Assembly: GCA_964291405.2 (NCBI GenBank)
Contig: OZ219926.1
Span: forward strand, 3,648,001 to 3,712,000
Direction of reading: 5' to 3'
DNA: 64,000 nt
From: Thermodesulfobacteriota bacterium
GTDB lineage: Bacteria > Desulfobacterota > Binatia > Bin18
Below are positions 30,082 through 56,957 of this stretch, in pieces (the first letter of the stretch is position 1; every line of letters starts with the position of its first letter). The translations under genes and the position numbers were made by a program. The notes under the pieces are model-generated. The model made no database searches and had not been told where the DNA came from. It worked only from the letters and a program-made list of their open reading frames with translations.

Positions 30082-30187
30082 TGTGACTCTCCAGTAATCT
30101 CAACAATACCTCTTTGTCCACCAGTGTGTTGATTCTCACTTAATCGTTGCTATACCATCGAGACACCGGTTGAGAGGACTAGGAAAA

Positions 30188-30415: not shown

Positions 30416-30417
30416 CT

Positions 30418-30504
30418 ATGGAATACGTAGCTGCCTTTCTCTTAATCGCCGTCCCCTCCCTATTTGTCTATCTTGCATTTGATGCGGCGCGACGCTCCAA
30501 GTAG
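30418..30504 (+). CDS. Putative 28-aa single-TM peptide
   Basis: MEYVAAFLLIAVPSLFVYLAFDAARRSK; ATG 2 nt after upstream stop, AAAGGA RBS. Confidence 0.45.
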   Translation: MEYVAAFLLIAVPSLFVYLAFDAARRSK

Positions 30505-30524
30505 ATAAGGTGAAGGCATTTCTT

Positions 30525-31298: not shown

Positions 31299-31428
31299 TT
31301 TGATTTCCTATAAGATACAGCTTTAATTGTACGGCCTGTGACGTATATACAGCTAAAAGTTTTTCTTACTCACCGCCCTGATTCTAATCCTACAGAGAGA
31401 TATGGGTAGACCTCCTATACTCTATAAT

Positions 31429-32739: not shown

Positions 32740-33848
32740 TGGGCGGATAAAAACTCGTCCAGGACCAGCGCGCAGCCGCGTGCTTCCGAGCCTGGGGTGC
32801 GGCCGATAATCTCAAACCCGTCGCCCGTCAGATAGCCTACGTCATCGGTCTGAATCGCCATGACCGAGCCGCAGTTGGCCAGGTCAAAGTGACGCAGGAT
32901 GCCGTGCTCGCCCGGTGGCACTTCTTCCAAGGTTTCAGGATGGACGACCAGCGTGCGTGTCCAGGCCGGGCCGATTTTATACCGCCGCTCGTTGCTCTTC
33001 CGAAAACGGTTGTACAAGACGTGATCGTAAAACTGCGAGGCCATCTCGGTCATGCCGTATTCGTTCACGCAGTAATAGCCGGCGACCTTGAGGTATTTCC
33101 AGCACGACTGCAAATAGCCGTTGCGCGAGAGCGGACGGCCTTTGCCCTTATTGCCGCCCGTATCCATAATGCGGCTACTGGAAGGCAGCGCAAAGGTTTT
33201 CCGATTGGCGGCGCACCAGTCGAAAAAGGCGACCAGGGCCGAGGTAATCGCCAGAACGCAGACCGGCTCGCTCGTCTCCTGGGCATGGGTGACGGCCGCG
33301 GCAAAGGCTTCCAGATGCATGCCGTCCACATCAATAAAATACCGGCTGTCAGAGGTTCCCAGGTCACGCATCACCCATTCGGCCATCTGGGTCAGCGATG
33401 AGTGCGGTTGGGTCTCGGGATCGGGAATCAGACTCAAGACCCGCAGCGGACGCTTTTCAGGCAGTACGCACTGCGAGAAGTGAGCCAGCGCCGAAGCGTG
33501 GTATAACTGCAAATCGGGGACAAGGTGTCGGCCACGCTTTTCCTGTCCCCGCGTGGTGCCACTGGTCAAAAAAATTTTCTCTGGCGGACCGCAGGTCAGA
33601 TCAAGCTCTTTGAAGGCGACAGTGGGGACGGCTGGAATAGCTTTCCAGGTTCGGACGGTCTCTGGGGTCTTGTCTCTGGCCAGGCAGAACCGCTGATATG
33701 AAAGATTATGCTCAAATTGATGGGCGAAGACATCCAGGGCCAAGGCGTTAAAGTCTTTCCCCTCAGGCGTGGCGATGAAATCCAGGACGCGGGCGTCTAT
33801 GTGGTTTCGCGGGGCATTCACGGAAAAAAGAGCATAGGAAGCCGTCAA
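32736..33848 (-). CDS. LuxE-like acyl-protein synthetase (start uncertain)
   Basis: IPAVPTVAFK, FLTSGTT, MDTGGNKG, NEYGMTE, DLANCGS..IQTDD, GRTPGSEARGC. Confidence 0.85.
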   Translation of the reverse strand: MTASYALFSVNAPRNHIDARVLDFIATPEGKDFNALALDVFAHQFEHNLSYQRFCLARDKTPETVRTWKAIPAVPTVAFKELDLTCGPPEKIFLTSGTTRGQEKRGRHLVPDLQLYHASALAHFSQCVLPEKRPLRVLSLIPDPETQPHSSLTQMAEWVMRDLGTSDSRYFIDVDGMHLEAFAAAVTHAQETSEPVCVLAITSALVAFFDWCAANRKTFALPSSSRIMDTGGNKGKGRPLSRNGYLQSCWKYLKVAGYYCVNEYGMTEMASQFYDHVLYNRFRKSNERRYKIGPAWTRTLVVHPETLEEVPPGEHGILRHFDLANCGSVMAIQTDDVGYLTGDGFEIIGRTPGSEARGCALVLDEFLSAQ

Positions 33849-42451: not shown

Positions 42452-43474
42452 GTTTTCCTTGACCACCCCTTGCTCGTTCATAAGGGAATGCAGTTCGGCG
42501 TTTTTTTCGCGCAAACTTGCTACAATTGTGCTGTAAGCTGCGTAGCGCGCGATCTCTTTTTTCGAGAGTTCGAATGCTCTTTTCATCAGTGTGATCCCAT
42601 TCGCTTCATCGTTTTGTTTGAAAGCCAGAAGAGAACGATTGAATGCAACAATCGCCTGCTCATGTGAGTTTACGTCTGCCCAAAACTCAGCTGCATCAAG
42701 CAACTTCTGAGATTGGGTTGTATCTCCATATAGTCCAAGTGCTAGCCCGTAGTTTGCCAACATGTGCGGCTCTGCACCGGAGTCGTAGATACCCTTAGAG
42801 AGCAGCTCGACTGCTTGCTCCGTAAGACCATTATGCAGAAAGACAAATGCAGTGTTGTTGATGTCACGACCAGTCGGGATAATTCGCCGGAGAGATCGAC
42901 GAACCCCGTGTCGAATGAAGAATAGAAGAATAAATTGAGCAATCAGCGCAATTGGAATGAGTGCGGCAATTACCGCATTTCGCGTTGGGGAGATTCTGAC
43001 AACAGAATTCAATGGAGCACGTTTGCCGGTTGACACGTCGCTCTTTATGCCGACAATCGGGTCTTTCCCGTCGGCAGTGTCGGTGAGGAGGGCAACTGTT
43101 GCAGTTTCATCGGGTGTAAAGACTGCAATCCGGACATCTAGTTTGTTGTCACCGATAGGCTGAATATCAATCTTGCCGGCAGGTCCTGACGACAGTGTTG
43201 CTCGTTTGTCATTGATTTTAACCTTGTTATCAAACTCGACGCCAATAATGACATTTGTCGCCGGTTTCTCACCAGTGTTTTTGACGCGAACATTAACGAA
43301 GGACATCGTGGTTTGGTCAGAGTCAAAGGTAACAGGCTTATCGATGTCGTAGATAAGTTTTTCGGCAAGAGGGGGTGGAGGCGACTCACGAGTCAGATAG
43401 TAGACTATTACACTTGCCACTACCGTGACGATGAGTGTCGCAATCGAGCCAAGGAATACGTCCCGCCATTTCAC
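42446..43474 (-). CDS. AT-richer membrane protein: TM, beta-rich extracytoplasmic domain, TM, TPR-like domain
   Basis: Two hydrophobic helices; INNTAF..LANYGLAL..AFNRS TPR-like repeats; codon usage unlike neighbours. Confidence 0.7.
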   Translation of the reverse strand: MKWRDVFLGSIATLIVTVVASVIVYYLTRESPPPPLAEKLIYDIDKPVTFDSDQTTMSFVNVRVKNTGEKPATNVIIGVEFDNKVKINDKRATLSSGPAGKIDIQPIGDNKLDVRIAVFTPDETATVALLTDTADGKDPIVGIKSDVSTGKRAPLNSVVRISPTRNAVIAALIPIALIAQFILLFFIRHGVRRSLRRIIPTGRDINNTAFVFLHNGLTEQAVELLSKGIYDSGAEPHMLANYGLALGLYGDTTQSQKLLDAAEFWADVNSHEQAIVAFNRSLLAFKQNDEANGITLMKRAFELSKKEIARYAAYSTIVASLREKNAELHSLMNEQGVVKENR

Positions 43475-43624
43475 CGTAGTCCCCCTATGTCACTCTGATC
43501 CGTTTACCCTTTGTAATCCTATTTATTATAGAAACCTAGCTGCCGATAGACTATGATACGGTGGGAAATACGAGACGTTGCATGTTTATTCAAGTTGTGA
43601 CGAAGCGGCAAGGACTTACTACCC

Positions 43625-44815
43625 CTACATTGAGGACATTTCCTCAGAGCGCAGCGAAGAAATCATCAACCAGCACAAAGCGGTGAAAGCGGCACTGATG
43701 AAGACCAGGGGGACGAAGCCGGTCTGATCGTACAGCCAGCCGCCCAGCACTTGAGACCCGCTTCGACCCAGGTTCAGGGCGGACATCAGGAGCGCGAAGA
43801 CCGTTCCTTCGACGCGGGCCGGGCAGGAGCGGGCCGCAAGATCGAGCACGGCCAGATGCGTAATCTGTGAAATCAGGCCGTAGCTGAGAAAAATGATGAC
43901 CGCGGACCGAGGCCCGGTTAAGCCCAGGAAACCGAGTGTTGACAACACGCCGAGCGTCACCGCGATAAAGAGAAGTCGGCGGAGGGAAATATTCCGAAAA
44001 AAGAAAAAAAAGATGACCGCCCCAAGCATGCCGGCCGCGTTGGTCAGCGCGCCGAGGGTGCCGATGTAGATTTTTGAAAATTGGAGAATATCTCGCTCGT
44101 AGTATAAGAGCGGCGTGCCGAACAGTGGGCTGAAATTCCACACAAACAGAAAGCCGGCCACAATCCAGACCGCACGCGACCGGGCGGCTGTTCTGAGCGC
44201 GTGCGCCGTCTCTCGCAACTGCGCCTGTCCCAATGGCCGCGGCGCTTCCCGCACAAAGCAGAGGGTTGCCAGCAAGGTGGCGAGCGGAAAGAATCCACAC
44301 ACGAAAAAAGCGGTGTGCGGAGTCGCGTATTCCGAGAGATAACCGCCACCGAGATGGGCGAGGGTTAAGGCCAGACCCATTGCCGCCCATTGAATCGACT
44401 GAAAACTCCCGGTGAGACCGAGGGGCCGTCCGGTCTCGACCATGAGCGCATCGGCCATGACGTCGGCAAAGGCCAGGGTAAACGAACACGCCATGAGCAG
44501 CACGAGGACGGTGGCGTACGCCGCCGGCGCAACGGACAGGGCCAGCCAGCTTCCCAGACCCAAGGCGCTCATCAACACGAGATAGCCCTTGCGCCGCGAG
44601 CCGCCCAAGGGCAGGAAGTCGGACACCAGGCCGTAGACGGGCTTGATGGTCCAGCCCAAGCCCACCATGGCCCAGACAAAGCCGGCCTGAGCGGCACTCA
44701 GGCTGAGGTCTTCTTTGAGGAGATATTGAATGGGTTGATAGGGCAGCCCGGTTGAGAGATCGATTGTACCCTGAACAAAATAGAGCGCCGCGAAGAACAG
44801 CGCAGACCGCCGCAC
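43625..44815 (-). CDS. MFS transporter, BT1 folate-biopterin-like
   Basis: WTIKPVYGLVSDFLP..RRKGY, DVMADALMVE, CPARVEGTVFALLMS. Confidence 0.85.
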   Translation of the reverse strand: MRRSALFFAALYFVQGTIDLSTGLPYQPIQYLLKEDLSLSAAQAGFVWAMVGLGWTIKPVYGLVSDFLPLGGSRRKGYLVLMSALGLGSWLALSVAPAAYATVLVLLMACSFTLAFADVMADALMVETGRPLGLTGSFQSIQWAAMGLALTLAHLGGGYLSEYATPHTAFFVCGFFPLATLLATLCFVREAPRPLGQAQLRETAHALRTAARSRAVWIVAGFLFVWNFSPLFGTPLLYYERDILQFSKIYIGTLGALTNAAGMLGAVIFFFFFRNISLRRLLFIAVTLGVLSTLGFLGLTGPRSAVIIFLSYGLISQITHLAVLDLAARSCPARVEGTVFALLMSALNLGRSGSQVLGGWLYDQTGFVPLVFISAAFTALCWLMISSLRSEEMSSM

Positions 44816-44909
44816 CCCCTCACGACGGAAAGGGTGGACTGCGTTCCGGAATGACTGGGAGAGAGAGGCGATGTGCTGGTGTCTCCTTTAGGGATCAGGT
44901 TCCCCTCTC

Positions 44910-45030
44910 CCTGGGAGAGCGGCCATCTTGGCCGCTTGCGGGCTGGAAGCCCGCACTCCTGGACCCCTGTCGCAGACCGGCACGGCGCAGGGGAGCGAGG
45001 GGCCGCCGAGTCCTGTCATGTGCATCACCC
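44910..45030 (-). mobile_element. Truncated MITE copy 3 (inverted)
   Basis: Reverse complement of the left ~120 bp of 21383-21582; flanked by REP palindromes. Confidence 0.7.
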
Positions 45031-45059
45031 CTCCCGAGAGGGGACAGGATGAAAAGTCC

Positions 45060-45638
45060 TCACGCCGACGTACTCGGCCGCGCCTTCATGGCATCGTACC
45101 AGCGGACGAGATTATTCCAGGCCGGGTCGAGCTGAAACGTCCCGCGATGATGCGCGGTCTCCAAGCCGATAAACAGCATGATGTCGGCAATTGAGAAATC
45201 CCCGGCCAGCCAGTCTTTGCCCTCCAGGCCGTCGTTGACCAGCGGCAGGCGATGCATCAGGACTCGGCGGGCCTGGTCGGACACGTCGCCCTTGGACAGC
45301 ACCATGCGCGAGGCCGTCAGATACACCCCGATTTCACAGCGCCGTTCCCAGGAACGCACAAGCGCCCGGCTGACGGGGTCGGTGCCGATCAGGGGCGGGT
45401 CGGGATAGAGTTCCTCCAGATATTCCATGATCGGCAGCGTTTCGATCAGGACCGTGCCGTCATCAAGCTCTAAGATGGGAACACCGGCAAACGGATTCTT
45501 GGCCAGAAATTCCGGTGTCTTCTGCTCGCCGGCGTAGAGGTCGATTTCCTTGACCGGAATATCCAGGTTTTTTTCGGCCAGATAGATGCGTACCTTGCGC
45601 GGGTTGGGCGCGCGTTTGGTGTCGAGATAGAGCAGCAT
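45060..45638 (-). CDS. Glutathione S-transferase family protein
   Basis: APNPRKVRIYLAEK, NPFAGVPILELDDG, GDFSIADI. Confidence 0.9.
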   Translation of the reverse strand: MLLYLDTKRAPNPRKVRIYLAEKNLDIPVKEIDLYAGEQKTPEFLAKNPFAGVPILELDDGTVLIETLPIMEYLEELYPDPPLIGTDPVSRALVRSWERRCEIGVYLTASRMVLSKGDVSDQARRVLMHRLPLVNDGLEGKDWLAGDFSIADIMLFIGLETAHHRGTFQLDPAWNNLVRWYDAMKARPSTSA

Positions 45639-45648
45639 GGAGTCCTCC

Positions 45649-46134
45649 TTAAAACTGGGTCGATTCTTCTTTCCGAGTGTGAGTGATCCGCACCGTGGGC
45701 GTCCAGGTCCGCTGGCGTCGGGCAAGACGGCTCTCCGGTGTCTCCCCGCCAAAATTGGTTACGCGGGTGGTGAAATTGGCCGGGTCGATATGCTCAAACG
45801 TATGGACATTGACCACGGCACTTTTTCGCTGGGGAAGTTTCCCCCGAGCCCCCTCACCGCGCCCGGCGATCCGGCTCACCGCAAAGGTGAGCACCTCACA
45901 ACAGGCACAGACGTAGAAGTCGGCTGTCTCATGGCCAAAGCGATAGGTGGGAACGTGCGTGGTATCTGTGATCGTTGCGTTGAGTTCCGCTTGGGGATGC
46001 GAGGTGTAGGTGCCCCGATGCTTCAGGCAGAAGCTGCAACTGCACGCCCGAACCGAAATCTCCGCGGCATCGAGCGGCCACAGGAATTCGTACCGGATCG
46101 TCCCGCAGTGGCATCCGCCCTCGATTCTTTGCAT
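45649..46134 (-). CDS. GFA/CENP-V family zinc protein
   Basis: GGCHCGTIRY, RACSCSFC, YRFG..ADFYVC. Confidence 0.8.
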   Translation of the reverse strand: MQRIEGGCHCGTIRYEFLWPLDAAEISVRACSCSFCLKHRGTYTSHPQAELNATITDTTHVPTYRFGHETADFYVCACCEVLTFAVSRIAGRGEGARGKLPQRKSAVVNVHTFEHIDPANFTTRVTNFGGETPESRLARRQRTWTPTVRITHTRKEESTQF

Positions 46135-46213
46135 GCTGACTCCTTGTCCGTCCCCGGAACGCTTGCTATGCTCGCCGCCTTGAGCAATACCGCAATAATA
46201 GAGGAGAAGATGT

Positions 46214-46666
46214 ATGGCAGCCACACCCTCCGACCGCCGTTTTGATGATCGCAATATCCGGTGGCAAGCGTTGGGAGATTTTGAACACCTTGAGGTCACC
46301 CTGCTCGATGTCGATGAAGAAAATAATATCGTGGACCTGATGGTCAAATTCGCGCCAAACGAGAAGATCTTTCTGCACCGTCATCTGGCGTTGACCAACA
46401 CCCTGGTCGTGGATGGCGAGCATATTATCTACGAAGCCGATGGAAGCGCGGTGAAAGATGTCCGCCCGGTTGGAAAATATACCTCCAGTCCCGCTGGAGA
46501 CGCACATCTCGAAGGGGGCGGCGCCGACGGGGCGATCGTGCACTACAGCGTGCGCGGCGACAGCGACGCCCTGTTCGATGTCCTGAACGACGATATGAGC
46601 GTGGCTGCGACGCTGCGCACCGCCGACTTTAAGGCCGTGCTTGAGGACCAAAAGCAGGCTGCCTGA
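46214..46666 (+). CDS. ChrR-like cupin protein
   Basis: FDDRNIRW, LHRH, GEH, HLEGG. Confidence 0.65.
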   Translation: MAATPSDRRFDDRNIRWQALGDFEHLEVTLLDVDEENNIVDLMVKFAPNEKIFLHRHLALTNTLVVDGEHIIYEADGSAVKDVRPVGKYTSSPAGDAHLEGGGADGAIVHYSVRGDSDALFDVLNDDMSVAATLRTADFKAVLEDQKQAA

Positions 46667-46726
46667 TGTCGCCATGACACCGCCTGTCAGTACATGTGCG
46701 GATGATCCGGTGGAAAAAGAAGGGGA

Positions 46727-47935
46727 GTGGTGGACTTCCTGATTCCATGCCCGTCGCAACGGGACCGTAACGCCCTGGCCGGCATGTCTGAGCATAGATT
46801 TCATCTGCTCGACGCGCCGCTCAATCCACGTACCCCCTCCCCGGAGCTGGACCTGCTGGCGTACACCGACCAGTGCCGCGACTATATCAAGGCCCACTCC
46901 ATTGATGCCGTTTTCTATTCCCGGGATGTGGCTGATATCGTGGCTGCGGTCTTGTGTGAGGAGTTCGGGTTTCCGGGACCCAGCGTGGAGTCCGTCTTTC
47001 TCTGCCTCCACAAGTACTACGGTCGTCAGTATGAACCCCATCCGGTCCGCTGTGAGCCCATCGATCTGGCGGACGAGCAGCCGGCGATTACGCGCTACCC
47101 GTGTTATCTCAAACCGCCCTGGCTGAACCTCGGGATTCTGGGTTTTAAGCTCGACTCGGACGACGACCTCCAGCGGGCGCTGGCGATTGCCCGACGCGAA
47201 TATCCGGCCTGGTCGCCGCTCTATCTGCCGTTTTTCGAGCGCTATATCGACTGCGAGAAGTTCCCGCTGGCCAACCGGGAAATCATGCTGGTCGAAGACT
47301 TTGTTGACGGACCGCAGGTGACGGTCGAGGGCTGGGTCGCCAATGCGCAGCCGGCGCTCTGGGCGATTACGGATACCAATACCTATCCGGGCACCCGGAT
47401 TATTGATAATTTTTCGCTACCGTCCCGGCACCCGGCCCACATCCAGGAACTACTGGCTCAGCAGGCTCTGGAAGCGATCAGCAATATCGGACTGGACAAC
47501 GGCTTCTTCAACATCGAGTTCTGGTGCCATGACAATGCGGTCACCCTGACGGAGGTCAACGGACGGGCGGCCACCTGTTTCTATAATCTGTATCGTCGCT
47601 GTCTCGGAGCGTGTATATACGAAGCCGGACTGAGGCTGGCCGGCGGGCAGTCACCTCTGCCCCCGCCGCGGCCAACCGATGTCGTGGGCGGACAGTTCAA
47701 TTTGATCACTTTTGGTGAGGACCTGGCCGAGAATCTGTTTGATTTCAGGCGCGCCCAGGAAGTGGGTGAGCTGACGATCTATGTCGAGCCGGGACAGGAA
47801 ATCCGTCCGGTGAGCGAGTTTGGGGTGGTGCTGGCCCAAATCGATCTGTTCGGCCCCAGCTATGCGGCGATTCACGCGGAAGCCGAGGCGTTACGCCGCC
47901 GGCTGTTGAAACAGCCGGCCCACTCGCCGTGGTAA
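46727..47935 (+). CDS. ATP-grasp ligase
   Basis: HKYYGR, YPCYLKP, LVEDFVDGPQVTVEG, FNIEFW, TEVNGR. Confidence 0.8.
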   Translation: MVDFLIPCPSQRDRNALAGMSEHRFHLLDAPLNPRTPSPELDLLAYTDQCRDYIKAHSIDAVFYSRDVADIVAAVLCEEFGFPGPSVESVFLCLHKYYGRQYEPHPVRCEPIDLADEQPAITRYPCYLKPPWLNLGILGFKLDSDDDLQRALAIARREYPAWSPLYLPFFERYIDCEKFPLANREIMLVEDFVDGPQVTVEGWVANAQPALWAITDTNTYPGTRIIDNFSLPSRHPAHIQELLAQQALEAISNIGLDNGFFNIEFWCHDNAVTLTEVNGRAATCFYNLYRRCLGACIYEAGLRLAGGQSPLPPPRPTDVVGGQFNLITFGEDLAENLFDFRRAQEVGELTIYVEPGQEIRPVSEFGVVLAQIDLFGPSYAAIHAEAEALRRRLLKQPAHSPW

Positions 47936-47966
47936 GCGCGTCAACCCAAGGGTCTGGACCAAGGGT

Positions 47967-48782
47967 ATGTGTCGTTTTGTTGTGTATCGCGGAAAGCCGG
48001 TCCCGCTCGCCGAGGTTATCAGTGCGCCTGCGCACTCCCTGATAGAGCAGAGTTACCAGCCTAAAGAGATGACCGCCGGAACGGTCAATGTGGATGGGTT
48101 TGGGGTCGGCTGGTATAACCGCGCGCTTGACCCCACGCCGTGTATCTACACCAATATCGTCCCGATCTGGAATGATCGCAATCTGCCCGGCTTGAGCCGT
48201 CATATTGTTTCGGATTGCATTGTCGCCAACGTCCGTAGCGCCACACCGGGTTTCGGACTCGATCAGAGCAACTGCCAGCCGTTTGCCTACGATCGTCTGT
48301 CGTTCATGCATAATGGCTTTATTGAAAAGTCCCGTGATGGCCTGCTGCGCAAAATACGCGAGGCCCTCCACGATGAGTACTATCGCCTTATTCGAGGCTC
48401 GACCGATTCTGAGCACATCTTTGCTCTTCTTCTGAACTTTTTGCACGGTCAGGAACTGACGCCACAGGCATATGTGACCGCTATTCGGCACACGGTTGCC
48501 CAGTTGCTGGACTGGACACGCGGTCAGGCGATTCATATGGCGCTGAATCTGGTGCTGTCCGACGGGGTGCATGTGGTCGCCCTCCGCTTTGCGAATACCT
48601 CGCCGGCGCCGTCGCTGTATTATTTGTGCAACGGTACGGATTTCCCCGACGCGGTGGTCATTGCGTCGGAAAGACTCTCTGCCGATCCGGCCTGGCAGGC
48701 TGTCCCGGAGAGTCATATTGTGACCTGCCGGAACGCCACGGATGTTGATCTTGTCGTCCTTGGCGGCCAGGAGACGGTATGA
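47967..48782 (+). CDS. egtC: Ntn amidohydrolase, ergothioneine biosynthesis protein EgtC
   Basis: N-terminal MCR, HSLIEQSYQP.EM..NVDGFGVGWY, ANVRSATPG, FMHNG, TDSE. Confidence 0.88.
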   Translation: MCRFVVYRGKPVPLAEVISAPAHSLIEQSYQPKEMTAGTVNVDGFGVGWYNRALDPTPCIYTNIVPIWNDRNLPGLSRHIVSDCIVANVRSATPGFGLDQSNCQPFAYDRLSFMHNGFIEKSRDGLLRKIREALHDEYYRLIRGSTDSEHIFALLLNFLHGQELTPQAYVTAIRHTVAQLLDWTRGQAIHMALNLVLSDGVHVVALRFANTSPAPSLYYLCNGTDFPDAVVIASERLSADPAWQAVPESHIVTCRNATDVDLVVLGGQETV

Positions 48783-50017
48783 TCGATATTGCGGACTTCC
48801 GGCAGCGGATGATCGAGGCGCGCGCGTACACGCAGTCGCTGTTCGCGGCGATCGAGCCGGAAGACTTCTGTCGACAAGTGCACGCCGAGTTCAGTCCGGT
48901 CGGCTGGCACCTTGGCCATATTGGGGTGACCGAGGGATTCTGGATTCTGCAACAGTGTCAGCACGCGGCATCGCTGTCGCCTGAGTACGATATGGTTTTC
49001 TCTCCGCTTGACAATCCGAAAGAGAATCGGGTCAATCTCCCCACAGCGCCTGAGATTTTTGCCTATCTGGATGAAGTTCGTGCGCGCGTGTTTGCCTTTC
49101 TGGAGCGGGGCGACTGGTCGGACACCCATCCCCTGCTGGGCGAAGGCCGCCTCCTGAACATGCTCTTCCAACACGAAGAACAACACACCGAGACCATCCT
49201 CCTGATTCTCAATCTGCTTGCAGCCCGGCGATTCGATGTAGGAGATGGGGGCTCGTTCTCTGCCTCCGCCGCGTCGCGCCGGAGCCCTCCTCAGCGTTCC
49301 GACCCAACGACCATGGTCCGGATTCCCACCGGAGCCTACAGCATGGGCAGCGATGACAGCGCGCGTACGCTGGACAATGAACGGCCTGCTCAGCAGGTCT
49401 GGCTTGAGGAATTCTGGATTGATCCCACACCAATCACAAACGCCGATTTCCTGGAGTTCATGGATGCTGGCGGATATCGGAACCCTGCCTGGTGGAGTCA
49501 GCAGGGATGGCGCTGGTGCGAGGAGCATCGTATTGCCCACCCCTTGTACTGGCGTCCTGGGAGTACTCAGGGGCACTGGCTGGAGATTGACCCGTTCGGG
49601 GTAGCGCCGTTGGATCCGGCCCAACCGGTGCGGTGCGTGAGTTGGTACGAGGCCGAGGCCTACGCCCGCTCGGTCGGGAAACGGCTGCCGACCGAGGCCG
49701 AATGGGAAAAGGCGGCTTGGTGGGAGGCTGAACAACAGACCGCGGCAGCACAATCAGACCCTCCGGAGTCCGGTCTCGGGCTGCTCGGCGGTGTCTGGGA
49801 GTGGACCCACACTTGGTTCCACCCTTATCCGGGTTTTCAGGCTTTTCCGTACGACGGCTATTCCGTTCCGTATTTTGATCAACACCACCGAGTCTTACGC
49901 GGTGGGTCGTGGGCAACGCGACGACATGTCCTTCGGCCAACGTTTCGGAACTGGTATCATCCCGGAATGCGGGCCGTCTTTGCCGGCTTGCGGTGTGCAA
50001 AGGACGCCGCGCCCTAG
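48779..50017 (+). CDS. egtB: Sulfoxide synthase EgtB (DinB + FGE-sulfatase domains)
   Basis: FSPVGWHLGH, QHEEQHTET iron ligands, DNERP, RLPTEAEWEKAA, GYS, LRGGSW, RNWY. Confidence 0.85.
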   Translation: MIDIADFRQRMIEARAYTQSLFAAIEPEDFCRQVHAEFSPVGWHLGHIGVTEGFWILQQCQHAASLSPEYDMVFSPLDNPKENRVNLPTAPEIFAYLDEVRARVFAFLERGDWSDTHPLLGEGRLLNMLFQHEEQHTETILLILNLLAARRFDVGDGGSFSASAASRRSPPQRSDPTTMVRIPTGAYSMGSDDSARTLDNERPAQQVWLEEFWIDPTPITNADFLEFMDAGGYRNPAWWSQQGWRWCEEHRIAHPLYWRPGSTQGHWLEIDPFGVAPLDPAQPVRCVSWYEAEAYARSVGKRLPTEAEWEKAAWWEAEQQTAAAQSDPPESGLGLLGGVWEWTHTWFHPYPGFQAFPYDGYSVPYFDQHHRVLRGGSWATRRHVLRPTFRNWYHPGMRAVFAGLRCAKDAAP

Positions 50018-50063
50018 CGCGGCGAGAGGCGGTGGATTGACCGAGTAAGGTAGGTTGTTTTGT

Positions 50064-51050
50064 ATGTCAACACGATTTCGAGAGACTGACCGTTTGCAAA
50101 TTTCTACGGTAGGCAAGGTACGTTCGCAATTGCGGACCGACGTTGCCTTTGGCTTGCAGCAAGACCAGAAAACCTTGCCGCCCAAGTATTTTTATGATGC
50201 CTACGGATCGCAACTGTTTGAGGATATCTGTCAGCAGCCGGAATACTACCTCACCCGGACCGAAGCGCAGATTCTACGGACGCACGCCGCGGATATCGTG
50301 CGACAGACGGCCGGCGCCTCACTGGTCGAGTTGGGAAGCGGCAGTTCGGTGAAAACCCGCCTTCTGTTCGATGAATATCAACGCCGGGATCACCTCCTGC
50401 ACTATGTGCCGATCGATATCAGCGCGTCGATGCTCGAAGAGACCGCGCACGGCCTGCTGGCTGACTACCCCACCATGTCGATTGAGGCCCTGGCGACCGA
50501 CTATCTGGCCGGACTCACCGCCCTGCCCAATACCCGGCCCCGTCTCGTCCTCTTTTTGGGCAGCAATCTGGGTAATTTCAGTCCGACGGAGCAGGCCGAA
50601 CTGTTTCAGCACCTGGCGGCCTACCTCCATCCCGGCGACCAGTTCTTATTGGGGCTCGACCTGCGGAAGTCTGTTGAGATTATAGAAGCCGCATATAATG
50701 ACGTGGCTGGAGTCACGGCCGACTTCAATCTCAATATCCTGCGTCATATCAACCGAGAGCTCCAGGCGGATTTTAATCTCGCGCAGTTCTCTCATCTGGC
50801 CTTTTATAATCGGGAACTGCATCAAATCGAAATGCACCTGAAGAGCGAGGTCGCCCAGGAAGTGACTATCACTGCCCTAGACCTGACCGTCTCGTTTCGA
50901 GTGGGTGAGACCATCCACACGGAGATATCCAGAAAATTCGATGTGCAAGAAGTCAAAGAACAATTGACTGGTCACGGCTTTCAATTCCAATCCCAATGGA
51001 CTGACCCCGACAACCTCTTTCTCCTGAGTCTCTTTCGCTATACGGGCTAA
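50064..51050 (+). CDS. egtD: Histidine N-alpha-trimethyltransferase EgtD
   Basis: LPPKYFYD..GSQLFE..PEYYLTRTE, ELGSG..KT, AYND..GVTA.FNLN, IHTEISRKF. Confidence 0.92.
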   Translation: MSTRFRETDRLQISTVGKVRSQLRTDVAFGLQQDQKTLPPKYFYDAYGSQLFEDICQQPEYYLTRTEAQILRTHAADIVRQTAGASLVELGSGSSVKTRLLFDEYQRRDHLLHYVPIDISASMLEETAHGLLADYPTMSIEALATDYLAGLTALPNTRPRLVLFLGSNLGNFSPTEQAELFQHLAAYLHPGDQFLLGLDLRKSVEIIEAAYNDVAGVTADFNLNILRHINRELQADFNLAQFSHLAFYNRELHQIEMHLKSEVAQEVTITALDLTVSFRVGETIHTEISRKFDVQEVKEQLTGHGFQFQSQWTDPDNLFLLSLFRYTG

Positions 51051-51065
51051 GCGGACGGCACGCGC

Positions 51066-52055
51066 ATGCCGCATGCAGGCAACCGGAGAGAGCTGCTCCT
51101 CATTGCAACCGGCGGGACAATCAGCCAGGGCCGCGCCGAGCCGGGCGGGAAGAGTCGTCCCGTGTTGTCGGCCGCCGATTTATTGGCCCGGACTACAATC
51201 GAGACCGGACATCTGCACTGCCTGGACCTGCCGTATCCTGACGGCGTGATCTCCTCGGGTGCCGAGGTGCTCACACTTGCGCGGACGATTGAGCGGGCGG
51301 CCAAGGAGGGCATGGACGGTATCGTGGTGACGCATGGAACCGATGCCCTGGAAGAGGTGGCGTACGGGATCGATGAAGTGCTCTCCGGGACCGTGCCTAT
51401 TGTCTTTACCGGAGCGATGCGGCCGAGTTGGGCCGCCGACTATGACGGAGTACAAAACCTGGAGAACGCCGTGCGGGTCGCCTCGTGCTTGTTGCCTGAA
51501 TACGGAACGGTGGTCACGCTGCACGGTGACATCTTTGAGGCCTGGAGTGTGTATAAAAGTGATACCGTCGCCCTGGACGCCTTTACGGCTCGTCGCGGAG
51601 CTCCGTCCGGACGCGTCAACGGGCAGCGGGTTGAACTCGGCTGGCAGCCCACGCGCTGGAATCGTCTGGGGTGTCTGCCCCAAGTCATGTCCTACTCAAT
51701 TCCCATCCTCACGCTCGGGGTTGGCGATGACGCTGCCCTTCTCAGGTTGGTAGGCGAACGGGCCGAGCGATCCATAGACGGCCTGGTGGTCGCGAGCATG
51801 GGGGCCGGGAGTATCCCACCAGCAGCACTCGGACAGTTCCGCCGTCTCGCAGATATGGGGCTGCCCGTGGTGTGCTGCTCCGGCGCTCAAAGCGGACCCA
51901 CTGCGGCACCGCAGTATTACCCCGGTATGTATACTGAACTGGTTGAGGCCGGCCTGATTATCGAGAACTTTCTCTCCCCGCGCAAAGCCCGCATACGCCT
52001 GATGCTGAGTCTCGGGCTGAATGTGCCGTATCGTCCGTTTGAGAGTGAGGCGTGA
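51066..52055 (+). CDS. Asparaginase/glutaminase family protein
   Basis: ATGGTI, THGTD.LEE, FTGAMRP, KARIRLML. Confidence 0.82.
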   Translation: MPHAGNRRELLLIATGGTISQGRAEPGGKSRPVLSAADLLARTTIETGHLHCLDLPYPDGVISSGAEVLTLARTIERAAKEGMDGIVVTHGTDALEEVAYGIDEVLSGTVPIVFTGAMRPSWAADYDGVQNLENAVRVASCLLPEYGTVVTLHGDIFEAWSVYKSDTVALDAFTARRGAPSGRVNGQRVELGWQPTRWNRLGCLPQVMSYSIPILTLGVGDDAALLRLVGERAERSIDGLVVASMGAGSIPPAALGQFRRLADMGLPVVCCSGAQSGPTAAPQYYPGMYTELVEAGLIIENFLSPRKARIRLMLSLGLNVPYRPFESEA

Positions 52056-52061
52056 CTCCCG

Positions 52062-53108
52062 CTACGACACTCTGGGCAAGACCTCTTTTCCGAACCGATC
52101 CAGCGAGCCCATGATTTTGTCGTGGGCCAACCCGCCGAAATTTGCCAGCAGACTCACGTTGGTGATGCCCATGGCCTGGATTTCCTTGATGCGCTCGACG
52201 CACTGGTCCGGATCACCAAATATGACTTTATGCGGGTACAGATAGCCCTCATAGTCAAAAGTCTTGAAGGCGTCCTTGAGGCCCTGGTACGGCCGATACT
52301 GATCGGAGTAGGCGGCTTCCTGGTTGGAGGCGGCCACTGCGTTTATATAGCGCATCATGGCCTCGCGGGGCTCTTCCTTCGCCTTTTCCGCGGTCTCGCC
52401 GCAATAAAAATGGTACACCCCGAGGATTTCCGGAGCGTCCGCGTAGCCATGTGCCTGCCGGGTCTGGGTGAAGAGTTGGAGGCGGCCCACCAGGACTTCC
52501 GGATTGGGTTGGGCATAGGGGACGACCATTAAATGATAGCCCATCTTGCCGGCCCATTCGAACGATTCCGGCGTAAAAATACAGGCAACATAGACGGGTG
52601 GTGGTTTCTGAACGGGTTGCGGAATGACCTGGAGATTGCGAACCTTGCGGAATTTGCCGTCGTGAGAGACCCGTCTTTCCGCCCAGGCTTGCATGATGAT
52701 GGCGTGCGCTTCTTCAAACAGCGCCCGACTGTCACCCATATTGCGCTCAAAGGCGTCGTACTCGCCCTTTTGAAATCCCCGTCCAATCCCGAACTCCAAT
52801 CGCCCGCCCGATAAGCAGTCGAGCATGGCATACTCCTCTGCCAGCCGAATCGGGTCCTGGAGCGGCAGGAGGGCAATCCCGGAGCCAATGCGGATGTTCT
52901 TCGTACGTTGGGCAACCGCAGCCCCAATCACCGGAACGGAGGGCAGATGGCCGCCGTAATTATAAAAATGGTGTTCCGCAAACCAGACGGAGTGAAAGCC
53001 GAGAGCCTCAGCCTGGTCGGTCTCCGTGAGCATGTCCAGGTAGAATTGCTCATCGCTGGTATGAAATTCCGGGAAAAAGCTGGGTAAATGAAAGAGTGAG
53101 ATTCGCAT
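52062..53108 (-). CDS. LLM-class flavin-dependent oxidoreductase
   Basis: WFAEHH, RIGSG, PIRLAEE..LD.LSGGRLEFGIGRG; AGGAGG RBS. Confidence 0.9.
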   Translation of the reverse strand: MRISLFHLPSFFPEFHTSDEQFYLDMLTETDQAEALGFHSVWFAEHHFYNYGGHLPSVPVIGAAVAQRTKNIRIGSGIALLPLQDPIRLAEEYAMLDCLSGGRLEFGIGRGFQKGEYDAFERNMGDSRALFEEAHAIIMQAWAERRVSHDGKFRKVRNLQVIPQPVQKPPPVYVACIFTPESFEWAGKMGYHLMVVPYAQPNPEVLVGRLQLFTQTRQAHGYADAPEILGVYHFYCGETAEKAKEEPREAMMRYINAVAASNQEAAYSDQYRPYQGLKDAFKTFDYEGYLYPHKVIFGDPDQCVERIKEIQAMGITNVSLLANFGGLAHDKIMGSLDRFGKEVLPRVS

Positions 53109-53781
53109 ACCGCCTCCTATGGTTCCTCTGTGCGACATGAAGTCGCTTAGAAAGATGGTTCAGATTATTTCTGTGTGAAAGAAAGGACACACAGACAGAG
53201 CCCTGTGAGTGTACACACAGGCATCATATCCCACATGCGTGCTGAGTAATTAGCAGGTGTGAAGCTGGGATAAAAGCCTAATGGGAAGGTAAATCATATA
53301 CCAACCCTGGGCCAGATGCAGACTGGTACGGTGAACGAAAGTGAACCCTTATTTGAAGCGTCGTGACGTAGGACTTCCGAAAGATGATTGATACGGAAGA
53401 ATGAGGCAAATGAACCCCTGCTGTTGATATAGGGGTGAGAGGTCGTAGTAGAGGATTATGGCCCGCGTACACCACAGCCTCCGGCGTAAAGAGGGCACCT
53501 ACCCCAGTCGTCTAACTTTCTATGCGGAACATGGTAAACCCGATGGGGTCTCAGACGAGCATGAGTAAGCCGACCGTAAGGAAGGCCGAATCCCTCAGCG
53601 GGAATGAGAGGTCTCAAGAAGCGAATGCCAGCAGCCGAAAGGTAACGGGAAAAGACCATCACACCCCAAGTGCACCACCCATTACTGCCACAATATGTGG
53701 AAAGCGGGAGGGCACATCATTGAATGGGGTGATCCGGGAAAAAAAAGGTTTTGAGTCCAAGAAAAGGGGTTCAAGGCAGGA

Positions 53782-53970
53782 CTATCCCAGGGACGATAAC
53801 ACAACCTGAATGACAACGGCACAAGAGACTGCAATCTCAGCACCAGTTGTCATCCAAGAAGCTACACGGGAATTCCGTGACTTGAAAAACTTAGCACCTT
53901 GTTTGCACACTGCCTCAGCAGCTTTGCAAAAACGATGGGCGCTTCGTAAAAACTTCTTGAACTTCTTCAT
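53782..53970 (-). CDS. Small basic amphipathic peptide with hydrophobic C-terminus, antisense within the intron
   Basis: 62 aa MKKFKKFLR..IAVSCAVVIQVVLSSLG; GGAGA RBS. Confidence 0.5.
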   Translation of the reverse strand: MKKFKKFLRSAHRFCKAAEAVCKQGAKFFKSRNSRVASWMTTGAEIAVSCAVVIQVVLSSLG

Positions 53971-54160
53971 AACATTCTCCATTTGGTTATGAGGTGAACA
54001 ACACAGGGCGTGAAGTCATCCGGGATAAGAAATCCCAAAGCCTCCTTTCTGTCTCCCTTGTCGCGATCAAGAGAAGACGGGATAAAGACCAAAACTTCCC
54101 AATGGCCTAATAACCGGCTGGATAAAGAGGGAAGGCATCCCCGCCGAAACGGGAAACAGT

Positions 54161-54346
54161 TTAACGTCGTGGACTAGATTCATAGGAACCTGGTAGCACG
54201 TAATTCATGGCATCCTCCGATGGAGGGTAGCTGCTCTGTAGATCATCATCCATAGATGAACTTCCCGGAGAGTCCTTCTCCGAAGCAGCGATAGCCAGAA
54301 GAACGACGGCACCAACACCAAGCCAAAACCAATCTTTGGCCCTCAT
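54161..54346 (-). CDS. Small N-anchored acidic/Ser-rich peptide, antisense within the intron
   Basis: 61 aa MRAKDWFWLGVGAVVLLAIAA..; GGAGG RBS 8 nt upstream. Confidence 0.55.
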   Translation of the reverse strand: MRAKDWFWLGVGAVVLLAIAASEKDSPGSSSMDDDLQSSYPPSEDAMNYVLPGSYESSPRR

Positions 54347-54633
54347 ACGAATAACCTCCAATTCTCAGTTGTGTGAAAAGTATGAGAAACAAGGAAATTA
54401 AGGGGATAGAATACTGGAAGGACTGGTAGTGACAGTCCCAAAAACCTCCTTTCTCCTGGTAAGGCAAGGAAGAAGTGACCAAAGCACAGGAAAGATTGGC
54501 TGGCCCACCCAGCCATGACACCAAAAGAATCAAAACCATGACGGAAAAACAACCTTCCAATCTCTCAGGGTGAAAACCCGCTGACGTGAGACTGGTAGTC
54601 TGTCCAAAAATCTTTGAAGAAAGGACGCACATC

Positions 54634-56310
54634 ATGGCTGACGTGATGATCCAGGCAACTGGAAACGAGGTCGTGACGCGACAATGGCAAGACATCGATT
54701 GGTGTCACAACGCCAAAATCGTGCGCGACCTTCGACACCGTATTTTTCGGGCTTCGCGGCTAGGGGACCGGAGGAAACTTCGGAACCTGCAACGCCTCAT
54801 GCTGAAATGCCGAGCCAATCATGAGATGAGTATCAGACAGGTTACGCAAGTAAGCACAGGGCGCAATACGCCAGGTATTGACAAGGTGATAGTCAAAACG
54901 CCGGCAGCGCGAACCGAGCTAATGGAAGCAATCGCAACCTACAAGCCGGAAAGAGCGCAGCCGGTCAAACGGGTCTTTATTCCCAAACGCAACGGTAAAC
55001 AGCGACCCCTCGGTATCCCGACCATCATGGATAGGGTGATGCAGGCAATTGTCAAGAACGCCTTAGAACCCGAATGGGAAGCCAGGTTTGAATCAAGCGT
55101 CTACGGCTTTCGCCCAGGGCGCAGTTGCCATGATGCCATTCAACGCATCTATGCAAATGTCAAACCGAACTTGAAGAAACATTGGGTCGTTGACGCCGAT
55201 ATCGTTGGAGCCTTCGACAACATCCCCCACGAAACCGTGCTGAACGCAATCCAGGGATTCCCAGGAAAAGCACTCATTCACGCATGGTTACAATCCGGCA
55301 TCCTGGAAGGCACAACACAGAAGCCAACACTCCTGGGAACTCCCCAAGGCGGTGTAATCTCGCCATTACTGCTCAACATTGTCCTGCATGGACTCGAACA
55401 GGCTCTTGATATCCGATACCAGAAAAGTGGAAACCGATACCGGAACATCAGCAACCGAACCCTGGTTAGATATGCAGACGATTTTGTCATCCTCACGGAG
55501 ACAAAAGAAGACGCCGACGCAGCGCAAAAACGAGCAGCAGAATGGCTACAAGAGCGCGGGCTGGAACTCTCACCAGAGAAGACCAGTATCCGACACCTGA
55601 CAGAAGGATTCGACTTTCTCGGATTCCATGTCAGACACTATCCTGACACAAACGTGAAAACAGGATGGAAGCTCTTAATAAAACCCAGCAAGGAAACGGT
55701 CAAAGCTTTCCGATACCGACTCAAACAAGAATGGACGGCTTTAGTCGGACATAACGCAGAGTCAGTCGTAAGAAGGCTGAACCCAATTCTGAGAGGATGG
55801 GGGTATTACTTCCATACGCAAGTATCAAAGGCCATCTTTCAGGACATCGACAACTGGATGTTTCAGAGGGTGTACCGATGGTGTAAGCGGACCCATCCAC
55901 AGAAAAGCTGGGAGTGGATCAAAAACACCTACTTCGGAAAGGCAAAAACCAACAGTCAGGCAAAATGGTACTTCGGAGGAACAGAAGGGCGTCTGCTGAA
56001 ACTCTCAGAGATTCCCATCCAACGACATATCCTAGTCTGGCATACCGCATCACCGGATGATCCACGGCTTGCAACATATTGGGAAGAACGTCGAAAGAAG
56101 GCTTGGAAGAACCTCCCTTCACCACGTCAACGGGATTTGGCCAGAAGGCAAAAGGGGCTCTGCTCGCACTGTCGAGTGAGTCTGTATACTGGTGAGGAAT
56201 TACACACCCACCACCATATCCCAAGGAAAAAGGGCGGAACTGACAAGCGCGAAAATCTGAGACTCGTACACCTCTATTGTCACCAGCAGATACATGGTAA
56301 ACGATGTTGA
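54634..56310 (+). CDS. ltrA: Group II intron reverse transcriptase/maturase with HNH endonuclease
   Basis: TPGID, RPLGIPT..DR, YGFRPGRS, GTPQGGVISPLL, RYADDF, FDFLGF, LNP.LRGW, CSHC..HH..GG..NL..H..CH. Confidence 0.95.
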   Translation: MADVMIQATGNEVVTRQWQDIDWCHNAKIVRDLRHRIFRASRLGDRRKLRNLQRLMLKCRANHEMSIRQVTQVSTGRNTPGIDKVIVKTPAARTELMEAIATYKPERAQPVKRVFIPKRNGKQRPLGIPTIMDRVMQAIVKNALEPEWEARFESSVYGFRPGRSCHDAIQRIYANVKPNLKKHWVVDADIVGAFDNIPHETVLNAIQGFPGKALIHAWLQSGILEGTTQKPTLLGTPQGGVISPLLLNIVLHGLEQALDIRYQKSGNRYRNISNRTLVRYADDFVILTETKEDADAAQKRAAEWLQERGLELSPEKTSIRHLTEGFDFLGFHVRHYPDTNVKTGWKLLIKPSKETVKAFRYRLKQEWTALVGHNAESVVRRLNPILRGWGYYFHTQVSKAIFQDIDNWMFQRVYRWCKRTHPQKSWEWIKNTYFGKAKTNSQAKWYFGGTEGRLLKLSEIPIQRHILVWHTASPDDPRLATYWEERRKKAWKNLPSPRQRDLARRQKGLCSHCRVSLYTGEELHTHHHIPRKKGGTDKRENLRLVHLYCHQQIHGKRC

Positions 56311-56957
56311 GAAAGGTGTTGAAAAGGGGCGCAAAAGGATAATCCAAAGAAAAGAATACAGGGTCCGGTGTGAGCCTTGGCCCACACCGGAGGTCCTGCA
56401 TCCTAGCTTGCCAGCTCTAGGATAATCCACACGGCTACCAAGAAACGGTAGTCAATACGGAGATGCATGGTAAAATCCATACAAACACCTATTTTTGTGG
56501 CTCAAAGGCCGAAGCTGAGTCAGCCGTAAAGGTAGGACGGTAGGATTGAAAATCCCTACCAACTGTGTAGGATTTACCAGCACACCGTCAGCGCTGATAA
56601 GCCACCAACTGTTTGCAGCAGTTGGTGGCGGCTTCAAAGCCCGTCCCTTGCGGACGGGCTTCCCTTATTTTCCAGCACAAACAACACAAGCCGTAAAGTA
56701 CGACAGACTGCTTGAGCCGTGTGCGGTGAAAGTCGCACGCACGGTTCTTAGGGGGGAAGGGCCTTGTGAGGGGCCTGACCTACCCGATTCATAGCCGACT
56801 TTCCCCCTGGAAAGAAGGCGGGAGAGGCGGAGTCTGCCTCTGGGGGTACGTTGAACTGGATGCGTGGGTTTGCTAGTTGGAGAGCTTATTTACTATTATA
56901 GAGAAAGCGCAGATAGACGGTCTGCATAAGAGTTGGTCGGTGTTATAGCAGGAGAGG

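Follow-up and report, generated by a model that had tools for sequence, protein, structure and literature searches.

A Conserved Ergothioneine-Type Locus of Candidatus Binatia with an ATP-Grasp Ligase and an Asparaginase-Family Hydrolase

Which compound donates the sulfur in an ergothioneine-type pathway whose operon keeps egtC, egtB and egtD, and combines them with genes for an ATP-grasp ligase and an asparaginase-family hydrolase? The question is raised by positions 46727-52055 of a 64,000-nucleotide stretch of DNA (the window) from a Thermodesulfobacteriota bacterium of the Binatia (assembly GCA_964291405.2, contig OZ219926.1, positions 3,648,001 to 3,712,000). The mycobacterial pathway is encoded by egtABCDE, in which EgtA, an enzyme of the GCS2 fold, makes gamma-Glu-Cys, EgtC removes Glu and EgtE is the C-S lyase, dependent on pyridoxal phosphate (PLP). 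Three donor logics are recognized for aerobic ergothioneine-type synthesis, namely gamma-Glu-Cys (EgtA with EgtC), free cysteine, and a selenosugar in the case of selenoneine. The present locus keeps EgtC yet swaps the donor-making enzyme, re-models the donor pocket of EgtB and adds a hydrolase class; to our knowledge, an asparaginase-class hydrolase has never before been linked to the ergothioneine pathway.

Our analysis identifies the genes as part of an ergothioneine-type biosynthetic locus, conserved in Candidatus Binatia, which is composed of a five-gene operon that is usually accompanied by a divergent gene for a glutathione S-transferase (GST)-like protein and by a transporter gene of the major facilitator superfamily (MFS). 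Because egtA and egtE are missing from the cluster, unrelated enzymes are in place and the donor pocket is altered, we infer that EgtB probably either accepts a sulfur donor not yet described or yields a derivative.

The operon and its conservation

Assignments with Pfam and NCBIfam give the operon order as ATP-grasp ligase, EgtC, EgtB, EgtD and asparaginase-family amidohydrolase. The genes of the locus are as follows, with model scores in bits against the cut-off where one applies.

43625..44815, - strand: BT1-family MFS transporter, a candidate exporter or importer of the product (PF03092, 153 bits, and MFS_1).
45060..45638, - strand: GST-like protein of 192 aa, divergent from the operon (GST_N and GST_C Pfam matches).
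46727..47935, + strand: ATP-grasp ligase with a predicted L-amino-acid-ligase-like fold, a proposed cysteine-peptide ligase (ATP-grasp_4 PF13535, 28.9 vs 27).
47967..48782, + strand: EgtC, an N-terminal nucleophile (class-II glutamine amidotransferase-type) amidohydrolase (TIGR03442, 273.9 vs 218.65).
48779..50017, + strand: EgtB-type non-haem iron sulfoxide synthase (NHISS), by sequence a distinct subtype (TIGR03440, 375.2 vs 360).
50055 (TTG) or 50064 (ATG)..51050, + strand: EgtD, histidine N-alpha-trimethyltransferase (TIGR03438, 384.8 vs 290.9).
51066..52055, + strand: asparaginase-family amidohydrolase of an apparently cluster-specific subfamily (PF00710 and PF17763; under every NCBIfam cut-off).

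The five + strand open reading frames (ORFs) are separated by gaps of 31, -4, 46 and 15 bp when egtD is counted from the ATG at 50064, and egtC and egtB overlap by 4 bp; the ORF coordinates bear out the tight co-directional spacing described in the original prediction. The start of the GST-like gene was placed at the ATG at 45638 by inspecting the sequence. EgtD matches the M. smegmatis enzyme (4pim) at E = 5.1e-81. Pfam scans of 71 ORF translations from the window (10 + 6 + 55) gave no match to GCS2/EgtA, GshA or GshB, and no class-V aminotransferase of the EgtE type or beta-lyase was present in the ORFs of the 64-kb window or in the flanks of the 10 related loci that were scanned. The sole PLP enzyme found in the window is a class-III aminotransferase (27313-28764). 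The earlier statement that neither egtA nor egtE lies in the window is therefore correct.

A profile of 15 ATP-grasp homologues (A1) scanned against one genome per species recovered 74 loci, the nearest of which are metagenome-assembled genomes of Candidatus Binatia with ligases of 96-97% identity. The egt-linked set was judged by tblastn of the window proteins at the 48 loci with a ligase at least 68% identical. At 41 of these 48 loci the four other operon genes come after the ligase gene, on its strand and arranged as in the window, and the complete order is found at 41 of the 43 that have sufficient downstream DNA. At four others the contig breaks off early, the genes up to the break being in the usual order, and a fifth contig stops 280 bp past the ligase. 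Locus L062 (311-4499) carries ligase, egtC, egtD and asparaginase genes and is missing egtB alone; its egtC-egtD gap is 135 bp, and no egtB match at E <= 1e-3 was found across the 8.8-kb contig. Locus L032 (9281-11206) carries the ligase and a partial GST-like match, with none of egtC, egtB, egtD or the asparaginase gene within 10 kb. The ligase of L032 is nested inside the egt-linked clade (see below), which suggests that the absence of egt genes there is secondary.

The identity to the window proteins ranges from 68 to 97% for the ligase and from 46 to 91% for EgtB, and goes down to 47% for the asparaginase-like protein. Since EgtB falls to 46% and the asparaginase-like protein to 47%, the five-gene unit is kept over considerable divergence, and its linkage is far beyond chance. 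The linkage of an ATP-grasp gene with egtCBD and an asparaginase gene, for which the original prediction had proposed a gene-neighborhood survey, is thus conserved. Matches are also abundant, with at least 120 database clusters for each of the three proteins searched and none below 47% identity among the matches listed.

The GST-like protein is 72-98% identical at 39 of 46 egt-linked loci, a conservation that exceeds that of every Egt protein and makes it the most conserved partner of the ATP-grasp gene. It also occurs with the ligase at L029, in addition to the partial match at L032. Seven egt-linked loci have no GST-like gene; six of them have less than 1.4 kb of upstream sequence, and one (L004) has the full 10 kb. 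The best solved relatives of this protein are 4n0v and yeast Gtt2 (3erf). A Glu-Thr/Ser pair, which we take to be the gamma-glutamyl-binding site of GSTs, is kept in 29 of 40 pattern-matched copies. Beyond the GST-like gene, an MFS homologue of 56-95% identity lies upstream on the opposite strand at 29 of the 46 egt-linked loci. The original prediction mentions neither of these two partners.

Six of the database records (L019, L029, L038, L041, L042 and L062) are titled 'uncultured Enterobacteriaceae' or 'Klebsiella pneumoniae'. Their ligases group among those of Binatia in the tree, so these titles look like binning or labeling errors.

Donor pocket, ligase and hydrolases

Among solved structures, EgtB is nearest to 4x8b from M. 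thermoresistibile (E = 3.1e-61), followed by 6o6l from Chloracidobacterium (E = 3.3e-51). The two motifs that had drawn attention in the original prediction, KENR and RNWYHPGMR, align with R87-x-x-R90 and N414-W415-D416...R420 of M. thermoresistibile EgtB, respectively, which are substrate-binding residues according to the accessible part of the structural report (PMC4768315). Within the same limits, the published work on the mycobacterial enzyme identifies S43, D48, R87, R90, D416 and R420 as contacts of gamma-Glu-Cys, with D416 contacting the glutamyl part and R90, D48 and S43 the cysteinyl part (PMC4768315; PMC11237966; bioRxiv 2022.04.13.486033). The window EgtB carries D48H, R87K, D416Y and R420M, and the subtype as a whole shows M, V, I or T in place of R420. 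All four differences from EgtB-I fall on the donor side, and the iron triad, Tyr377, Tyr380 and the hercynine-side residues N414 and W415 are kept. The placement of the two motifs at donor-binding positions is borne out, and the pattern is general: PK..R, RNWY, a hydrophobic residue at 420 and R421 are found in 46 of 46 locus copies. Among the 120 EgtB homologues listed, all at least 47% identical, RNWY is present in 117 and PK..R in 119.

Class motifs that condense 17 active-site positions have been published, and in the accessible portion of that preprint they read xSDH--RRHQHYYNWDR for EgtB-I, xSHHYYRRHQHxYNFFx for EgtB-II and xNEH--HRHxHYYN(F/Y)(F/Y)R for SenA, with 4,580 sequences remaining as 'Other' (bioRxiv 10.1101/2024.04.10.588772). 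The composite motif of the window EgtB, read from the alignment to 4x8b, is SHH--KRHQHYYNWYM. It departs from EgtB-I at the four donor-site positions. Like EgtB-II, the Chloracidobacterium thermophilum type that follows the free-cysteine route, it has His48 and an aromatic residue at 416, and the similarity to 6o6l is comparable. The two residues, a resemblance that the original prediction did not note, are the only motif features in common, and the window EgtB is unlike EgtB-II in that it lacks the two-tyrosine insertion, keeps Tyr377 and Trp415 of EgtB-I, and has Lys at 87 and Tyr at 416. Judged by these motifs, EgtB here is a populated, distinct subtype outside all published classes.

Assignment to a selenoneine cluster was considered and rejected. 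The SenA model NF041186 scores 302.6 against a cut-off of 420, the window EgtB has S43, H48 and K87 where SenA has N43, E48 and H87, and neither SenB nor SenC (glycosyltransferase and selenophosphate synthetase) was found among the window ORFs scanned. The OvoA N-terminal model reaches 135.8 against 400, whereas the EgtB model passes its cut-off.

The Pfam match of the ligase is weak, as the scores above show, and the AF2 model, built from a 133-sequence alignment, is a confident ATP-grasp fold (pLDDT 97.3). By sequence profile, the solved relatives are remote (4dim, E = 4.7e-13; BL00235, E = 0.17), and GshB and GshF gave no match up to E = 1 in the search of solved structures. The top Foldseek folds for the model are the L-amino-acid ligases BL00235 (3vot), BacD/YwfE (3vmm, 3wnz) and RizA (4wd3), with E of 2e-22 to 7e-20, TM of 0.62-0.76 and only 12-17% identity. 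The structural-genomics protein 4dim also ranks among the top folds, and ATP-grasp enzymes of the purine and biotin carboxylase types come next. The predicted fold is thus closest to that of the dipeptide-forming L-amino-acid ligases. The ligase is unlike those enzymes in its low identity and in its genomic partners, which are thiol-using iron enzymes and not antibiotic pathways. Atlas look-ups of the ligase and of the asparaginase-like protein returned generic family names only.

The exhaustive profile search with the ligase gave 237 cluster representatives at E <= 1e-30. The second-best match (P0126, 591 aa) is a fusion of the ligase to a PCO_ADO thiol-dioxygenase domain. Ligases of about 50% identity from Thermoanaerobaculia and other Acidobacteriota have no egt genes at their loci, and PCO_ADO (PF07847) adjoins the ligase in 22 of the 22 sister loci that have flanking sequence, in two arrangements. 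In a maximum-likelihood tree of 88 rows (quick search, SH-aLRT supports), the PCO/ADO-linked ligases (n = 23) form one clade with a support of 100, and the egt-linked ligases together with those of L029 and L032 form its sister clade with a support of 93, the joining branch having 85. We compared ligase positions across 46 egt-linked and 10 sister rows, after 12 sister rows with lost N-termini had been dropped. Of 402 positions, 94 are identical in both clades at >=95% conservation and 12 are clade-specific, five of these in the loop 64-69. These numbers suggest closely related chemistry in the two clades.

The ligase family therefore occurs in two independent settings together with a mononuclear-iron enzyme that depends on O2 and acts on a thiol substrate. 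Because the EgtB and PCO/ADO contexts are both thiol-using, the substrate or product of the ligase is likely to be a cysteine-type thiol, and we regard this as the best evidence for such a substrate or product. The known PCO/ADO substrates are cysteamine and N-terminal cysteine, according to the accessible part of the source (PMC8503633). No description of a bacterial ATP-grasp/PCO-ADO system was found among the 10 papers listed, of 30, on ATP-grasp enzymes and thiol dioxygenases.

Two further observations concern the relatives of the ligase. The sister module is found at L048:9956-13029 and at 21 other loci (L047-L061, L063-L068 and L073), and 21 of the 22 PCO_ADO sister loci also encode a conserved protein of ~418 aa. 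This protein belongs to no Pfam or NCBIfam family, and its AF2 model (pLDDT 85) is weakly like class-I aminoacyl-tRNA synthetases and the bacillithiol enzyme BshC (TM 0.30-0.35). In Roseateles sp. (L074:2487-15243), a distant ligase homologue of 34% identity is followed by a GST gene, in a cluster that also holds a nonribosomal peptide synthetase module, a flavin monooxygenase, an aminotransferase, a methyltransferase and a peptidase C26 of the gamma-glutamyl hydrolase type.

The nucleophile C2 of EgtC, together with R90, N116, G117 and D147, shows no substitution in any of the 47 copies (47 of 47). We take R90, N116-G117 and D147 to be the glutamine-binding and oxyanion residues of class-II amidotransferases. 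Since the glutamine-binding residues are intact, the group removed by EgtC is probably a side-chain-linked amino acid such as gamma-glutamyl. The best solved relative of EgtC is the uncharacterized protein 3mdn (E = 1.3e-39); the M. smegmatis EgtC structure ranks lower (3.2e-23).

In the asparaginase-like protein, the catalytic Thr/Thr-Asp-Lys set, placed by alignments to 9d91 and 8h49 and by E. coli numbering (T18, T92, D93 and K164), is unchanged in all copies compared (43 of 43). The stretch 55-66, which corresponds to the substrate-binding Ser-Gln of E. coli asparaginase, is variable; the two alignments set that Ser against Asp or Tyr, and a lid tyrosine is not evident. The protein scores under all NCBIfam cut-offs (133.3 vs 314.3; 85.2 vs 260.5). 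GatD models also fall short (78.6 vs 310 and 65.2 vs 324), with 2d6f matched at E = 5.8e-14. At 329 aa, it matches positions 75-391 of the 420-position GatD model and is without the GatD N-terminal domain that binds GatE. All 120 homologues listed are at least 51% identical, several of them sit on contigs whose lengths equal those of contigs with ligase and EgtB matches, and the subfamily looks specific to the present cluster type. The gene is kept with egtC and egtD at L062 and absent from L032, which indicates that it tracks the egt part of the locus and not the ligase.

We also considered the asparaginase-like protein as a replacement for EgtE and rejected it: both the fold and the catalytic residues mark it as an amide hydrolase, and there is no sign of C-S lyase chemistry. 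The original prediction had described the ligase and asparaginase-like genes as standing 'instead of egtA/egtE'. The part of this that stands is the absence of both genes from the window; the part that does not is an asparaginase fold substituting for a PLP C-S lyase. In published thiohistidine clusters the lyase comes from elsewhere (PMC13674229).

Proposed route and alternatives

The reading that we favor, at a probability of about 0.4, is that the ligase makes an acyl-cysteine donor, EgtB uses it, EgtC unmasks the product, the asparaginase-like enzyme cuts a second amide and the lyase is encoded elsewhere. Its substrates and the order of its steps are our proposal. EgtD, by its strong family membership, would trimethylate histidine to hercynine. 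The ligase would join an amino acid to cysteine, most likely as a glutamyl-type acyl group on the cysteine nitrogen, and so take over the provision of the thiol donor, in mycobacteria the task of EgtA, as a non-orthologous replacement with possibly a different acyl group. The re-modeled EgtB would join this donor to hercynine at C2 to give a sulfoxide, EgtC would strip the acyl group, and the asparaginase-fold enzyme would hydrolyze a second amide in the donor or an intermediate. Cleavage of the C-S bond would fall to a PLP lyase encoded elsewhere, as in published thiohistidine clusters (PMC13674229). The GST-like protein may handle a gamma-glutamyl thiol or a sulfenic-acid intermediate, and the MFS protein may move the product, which would be ergothioneine or a close derivative.

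A wider proposal, which we offer tentatively, is that the ligase makes an undescribed cysteine-containing thiol for which two unrelated O2-dependent iron enzymes have been recruited: it would be used as the sulfur donor for a thiohistidine by the new EgtB subtype in Binatia and, in Thermoanaerobaculia, by the PCO/ADO dioxygenase, which would convert it to a sulfinate; EgtC and the asparaginase-fold enzyme would then unmask ergothioneine or a new derivative.

Several observations weigh against the favored route. L032 retains ligase and GST-like genes without any egt gene in the surrounding 10 kb, and L062 keeps ligase, egtC, egtD and asparaginase genes without egtB. The Egt proteins are less well conserved than the ligase and the GST-like protein, as would be expected if the latter two were a general thiol-metabolism pair. 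His48 and the aromatic residue at 416 match the free-cysteine-using EgtB-II, so plain cysteine use is possible, in which case the proposed roles of the ligase and EgtC would be lost. No particular bond can be assigned to the asparaginase-like enzyme. L-Amino-acid ligases usually form alpha-peptide bonds and not gamma-glutamyl bonds. Finally, the direction of ligation is pulled two ways. The presence of EgtC favors X-Cys. Known substrates of PCO/ADO enzymes must have their N-terminal amine free, unlike an N-acyl-cysteine, and this favors Cys-X, a poor fit to EgtC.

In the strongest rival to this route, EgtB takes free cysteine. Once the C-S bond has been made, the ligase and the two hydrolases (EgtC and the asparaginase-like enzyme) would build and trim an amide on hercynylcysteine sulfoxide or ergothioneine, so that the product is a new ergothioneine-derived peptide or amide in place of ergothioneine. 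Ligation would then be possible only at the carboxylate, because the alpha-amine is trimethylated. We consider this doubtful and retain it mainly because His48 and the aromatic residue at 416 copy EgtB-II, in an enzyme without the D416 and R420 of EgtB-I. The retention of all five genes together would fit a contribution of each to a distinct product, and the linked MFS gene has a parallel in the ash cluster. Against it, the glutamine-binding residues of EgtC are intact, which fits removal of gamma-glutamyl from the EgtB product, and this is the only role of EgtC that we know of. It is hard to see why a pathway would add amides after the key step only to remove them, and the link of the sister-clade ligases to a thiol dioxygenase points to a thiol and not to a thione betaine. 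EgtB here also differs from EgtB-II in being encoded alongside EgtC, an enzyme dispensable for the free-cysteine route, as described in the accessible part of a study of that route (PMC11993508).

The same rival draws on the published ash and tgi clusters, in which NHISS and ATP-grasp enzymes are already known to make thiohistidine dipeptides (Abbott et al., J Am Chem Soc 2026, PMC13674229). As far as the accessible text of that article describes them, these clusters are the nearest published system in gene content and resemble the present locus in keeping sulfoxide synthase and ATP-grasp genes together, often with an MFS gene and with the C-S lyase elsewhere. Their NHISS is of an OvoA-like branch that accepts histidine and not hercynine, they have no EgtD or EgtC, and their ligases, of the RimK-like type apart from one that is YbdK-like, acylate 2-thiohistidine at its free alpha-amine, a position that EgtD would block here. 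Unlike them, the present locus has an NHISS on the EgtB branch, EgtD and EgtC, and a PF13535 ligase with a predicted L-amino-acid-ligase fold. These differences from the clusters as reported in that text rule out membership of the ash/tgi group. Neither Binat* nor asparaginase nor amidohydrolase is mentioned in the main text of the article, and the present ligase could still be one of its 16 ligase subfamilies. The present arrangement was likewise not found in the literature on ergothioneine with ATP-grasp and EgtB or with EgtC and asparaginase, a body of text that covers few of the subscription journals.

It is unlikely, in our view, that the ligase and the GST-like protein form a general thiol module, for example a glutathione-type or gamma-Glu-Cys synthetase and a transferase, beside an ordinary egtCBD set that makes plain ergothioneine from a gamma-Glu-Cys pool, with the asparaginase-like enzyme as an accessory for nitrogen or glutamate recycling. 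Bacterial glutathione synthetase is itself an ATP-grasp enzyme, the ligase (68-97%) and GST-like protein (72-98%) exceed EgtB (46-91%) in identity at the same loci, L032 has both genes without egt genes, and a GST gene also follows the distant homologue in Roseateles. However, the ligase is the first gene of the operon at 41 loci, here 31 bp from egtC, and its clade coincides almost completely with the egt linkage. The ligase profile search reached neither GshB nor GshF among solved structures up to E = 1, the EgtB pocket is unlike that of a gamma-Glu-Cys user, and the asparaginase subfamily appears confined to this cluster type, with all 120 listed homologues at least 51% identical. On the host, the accessible part of the Binatota genome paper names glutathione only for dcmA and a glutathione-independent formaldehyde dehydrogenase, and that part is silent on glutathione synthesis in the phylum.

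A very improbable alternative is that the asparaginase-like enzyme, EgtC or both generate ammonia, as GatD does in GatDE, for a ligase that amidates the carboxylate of cysteine, gamma-Glu-Cys or hercynine to a carboxamide intermediate or product: ATP-grasp enzymes do activate carboxylates as acyl phosphates, the catalytic residues of the asparaginase-like protein are intact and GatD models match it below cut-off, but it is without the extra GatD N-terminal domain, the sister-clade ligases have no amidohydrolase neighbor at all, and its gene follows egtC and egtD (L062) and is gone where the ligase and GST-like gene remain (L032).

Among known systems, the locus shares with mycobacterial egtABCDE the proteins EgtD, EgtB and EgtC, all above the NCBIfam equivalog cut-offs, and a co-directional five-gene operon with the ligase gene first. 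It differs in that the window has no GCS2-family EgtA or PLP EgtE, the ligase is an unrelated ATP-grasp enzyme, the fifth gene is of the asparaginase family, EgtB has its four donor-site changes, and GST-like and MFS genes are linked. If the wider proposal is true, the ligase product would be a new low-molecular-weight thiol and the locus would represent a fourth sulfur-donor logic for aerobic ergothioneine synthesis. A new donor would also mean a new pair of enzymes for making thiohistidines by biocatalysis, and a way into the chemistry of an unknown thiol. If the donor is ordinary gamma-Glu-Cys, the ligase would still be a clean non-orthologous replacement of EgtA. The host is an uncultured bacterium of soil and sediment from an uncultured phylum with a global distribution, and the ligase clade is present in 48 species-level genomes. 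The subtype offers a testable explanation for part of the 4,580 sulfoxide synthases left as 'Other' in the accessible part of the classification (bioRxiv 10.1101/2024.04.10.588772).

Neighboring genes and other features of the window

Three further genes lie next to the operon.

45649..46134, - strand: small Cys-rich protein of the GFA family (glutathione-dependent formaldehyde-activating enzyme-like; PF04828, 25.2 bits against a cut-off of 24.3).
46214..46666, + strand: ChrR-type cupin (Cupin_7) protein, directly upstream of the ligase (PF12973, 31.1 bits).
52062..53138, - strand: luciferase-like monooxygenase, convergent and 6 bp from the asparaginase stop (PF00296, 203.5 bits).

The GFA-like gene is found at 20 of the 46 egt-linked loci, 19 of them close relatives at 68-83% and one (L013) a weak match of 43%, and the cupin gene is found at 15 of 46. 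Both are lineage-specific inserts that are largely confined to close relatives. A homologue of the luciferase-like monooxygenase is present at 21 of the 46 egt-linked loci, and its best NCBIfam match is the MupA/Atu3671 family, below the cut-off (181.6 vs 244.45). It is a frequent neighbor, and its membership in the cluster is uncertain.

A + strand ORF at 45637-46245 was considered as a gene and rejected as an antisense artifact of the GFA-like gene on the - strand. This 202-codon frame has no family match and still gave tblastn matches of 43-81% in related loci, because the GFA-like gene on the opposite strand is conserved. An out-of-frame query also matched related loci at 31-88%, so that long ORFs and tblastn need care in a G+C-rich genome. 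A promoter and terminator scan of 43400-53400 gave 5 promoter-like sites (3.8 expected) and 20 terminator-like sites (8.6 expected), the latter mostly within genes, and we draw nothing from these counts.

Downstream of the monooxygenase gene, a group II intron occupies window positions 53201-56788, with Rfam domains 1-4 at 53201-53288, the catalytic 3' part at 56712-56788, and an ORF for a reverse transcriptase/maturase/HNH protein (54586-56310) inside it. The intron sits between the monooxygenase gene and a LysM/SLT transglycosylase gene (56958-58721). These two genes are adjacent in L038, which indicates that the intron is an insertion in the present genome. Elsewhere in the window, the G+C content falls to 0.48 at 30001-32000, against ~0.59 in the rest. 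The low-G+C zone covers a DUF4145 gene (30525-31298), which lies beside a - strand pair encoding a LuxC-type acyl-CoA reductase and a LuxE-type acyl-protein synthetase (31429-33848).

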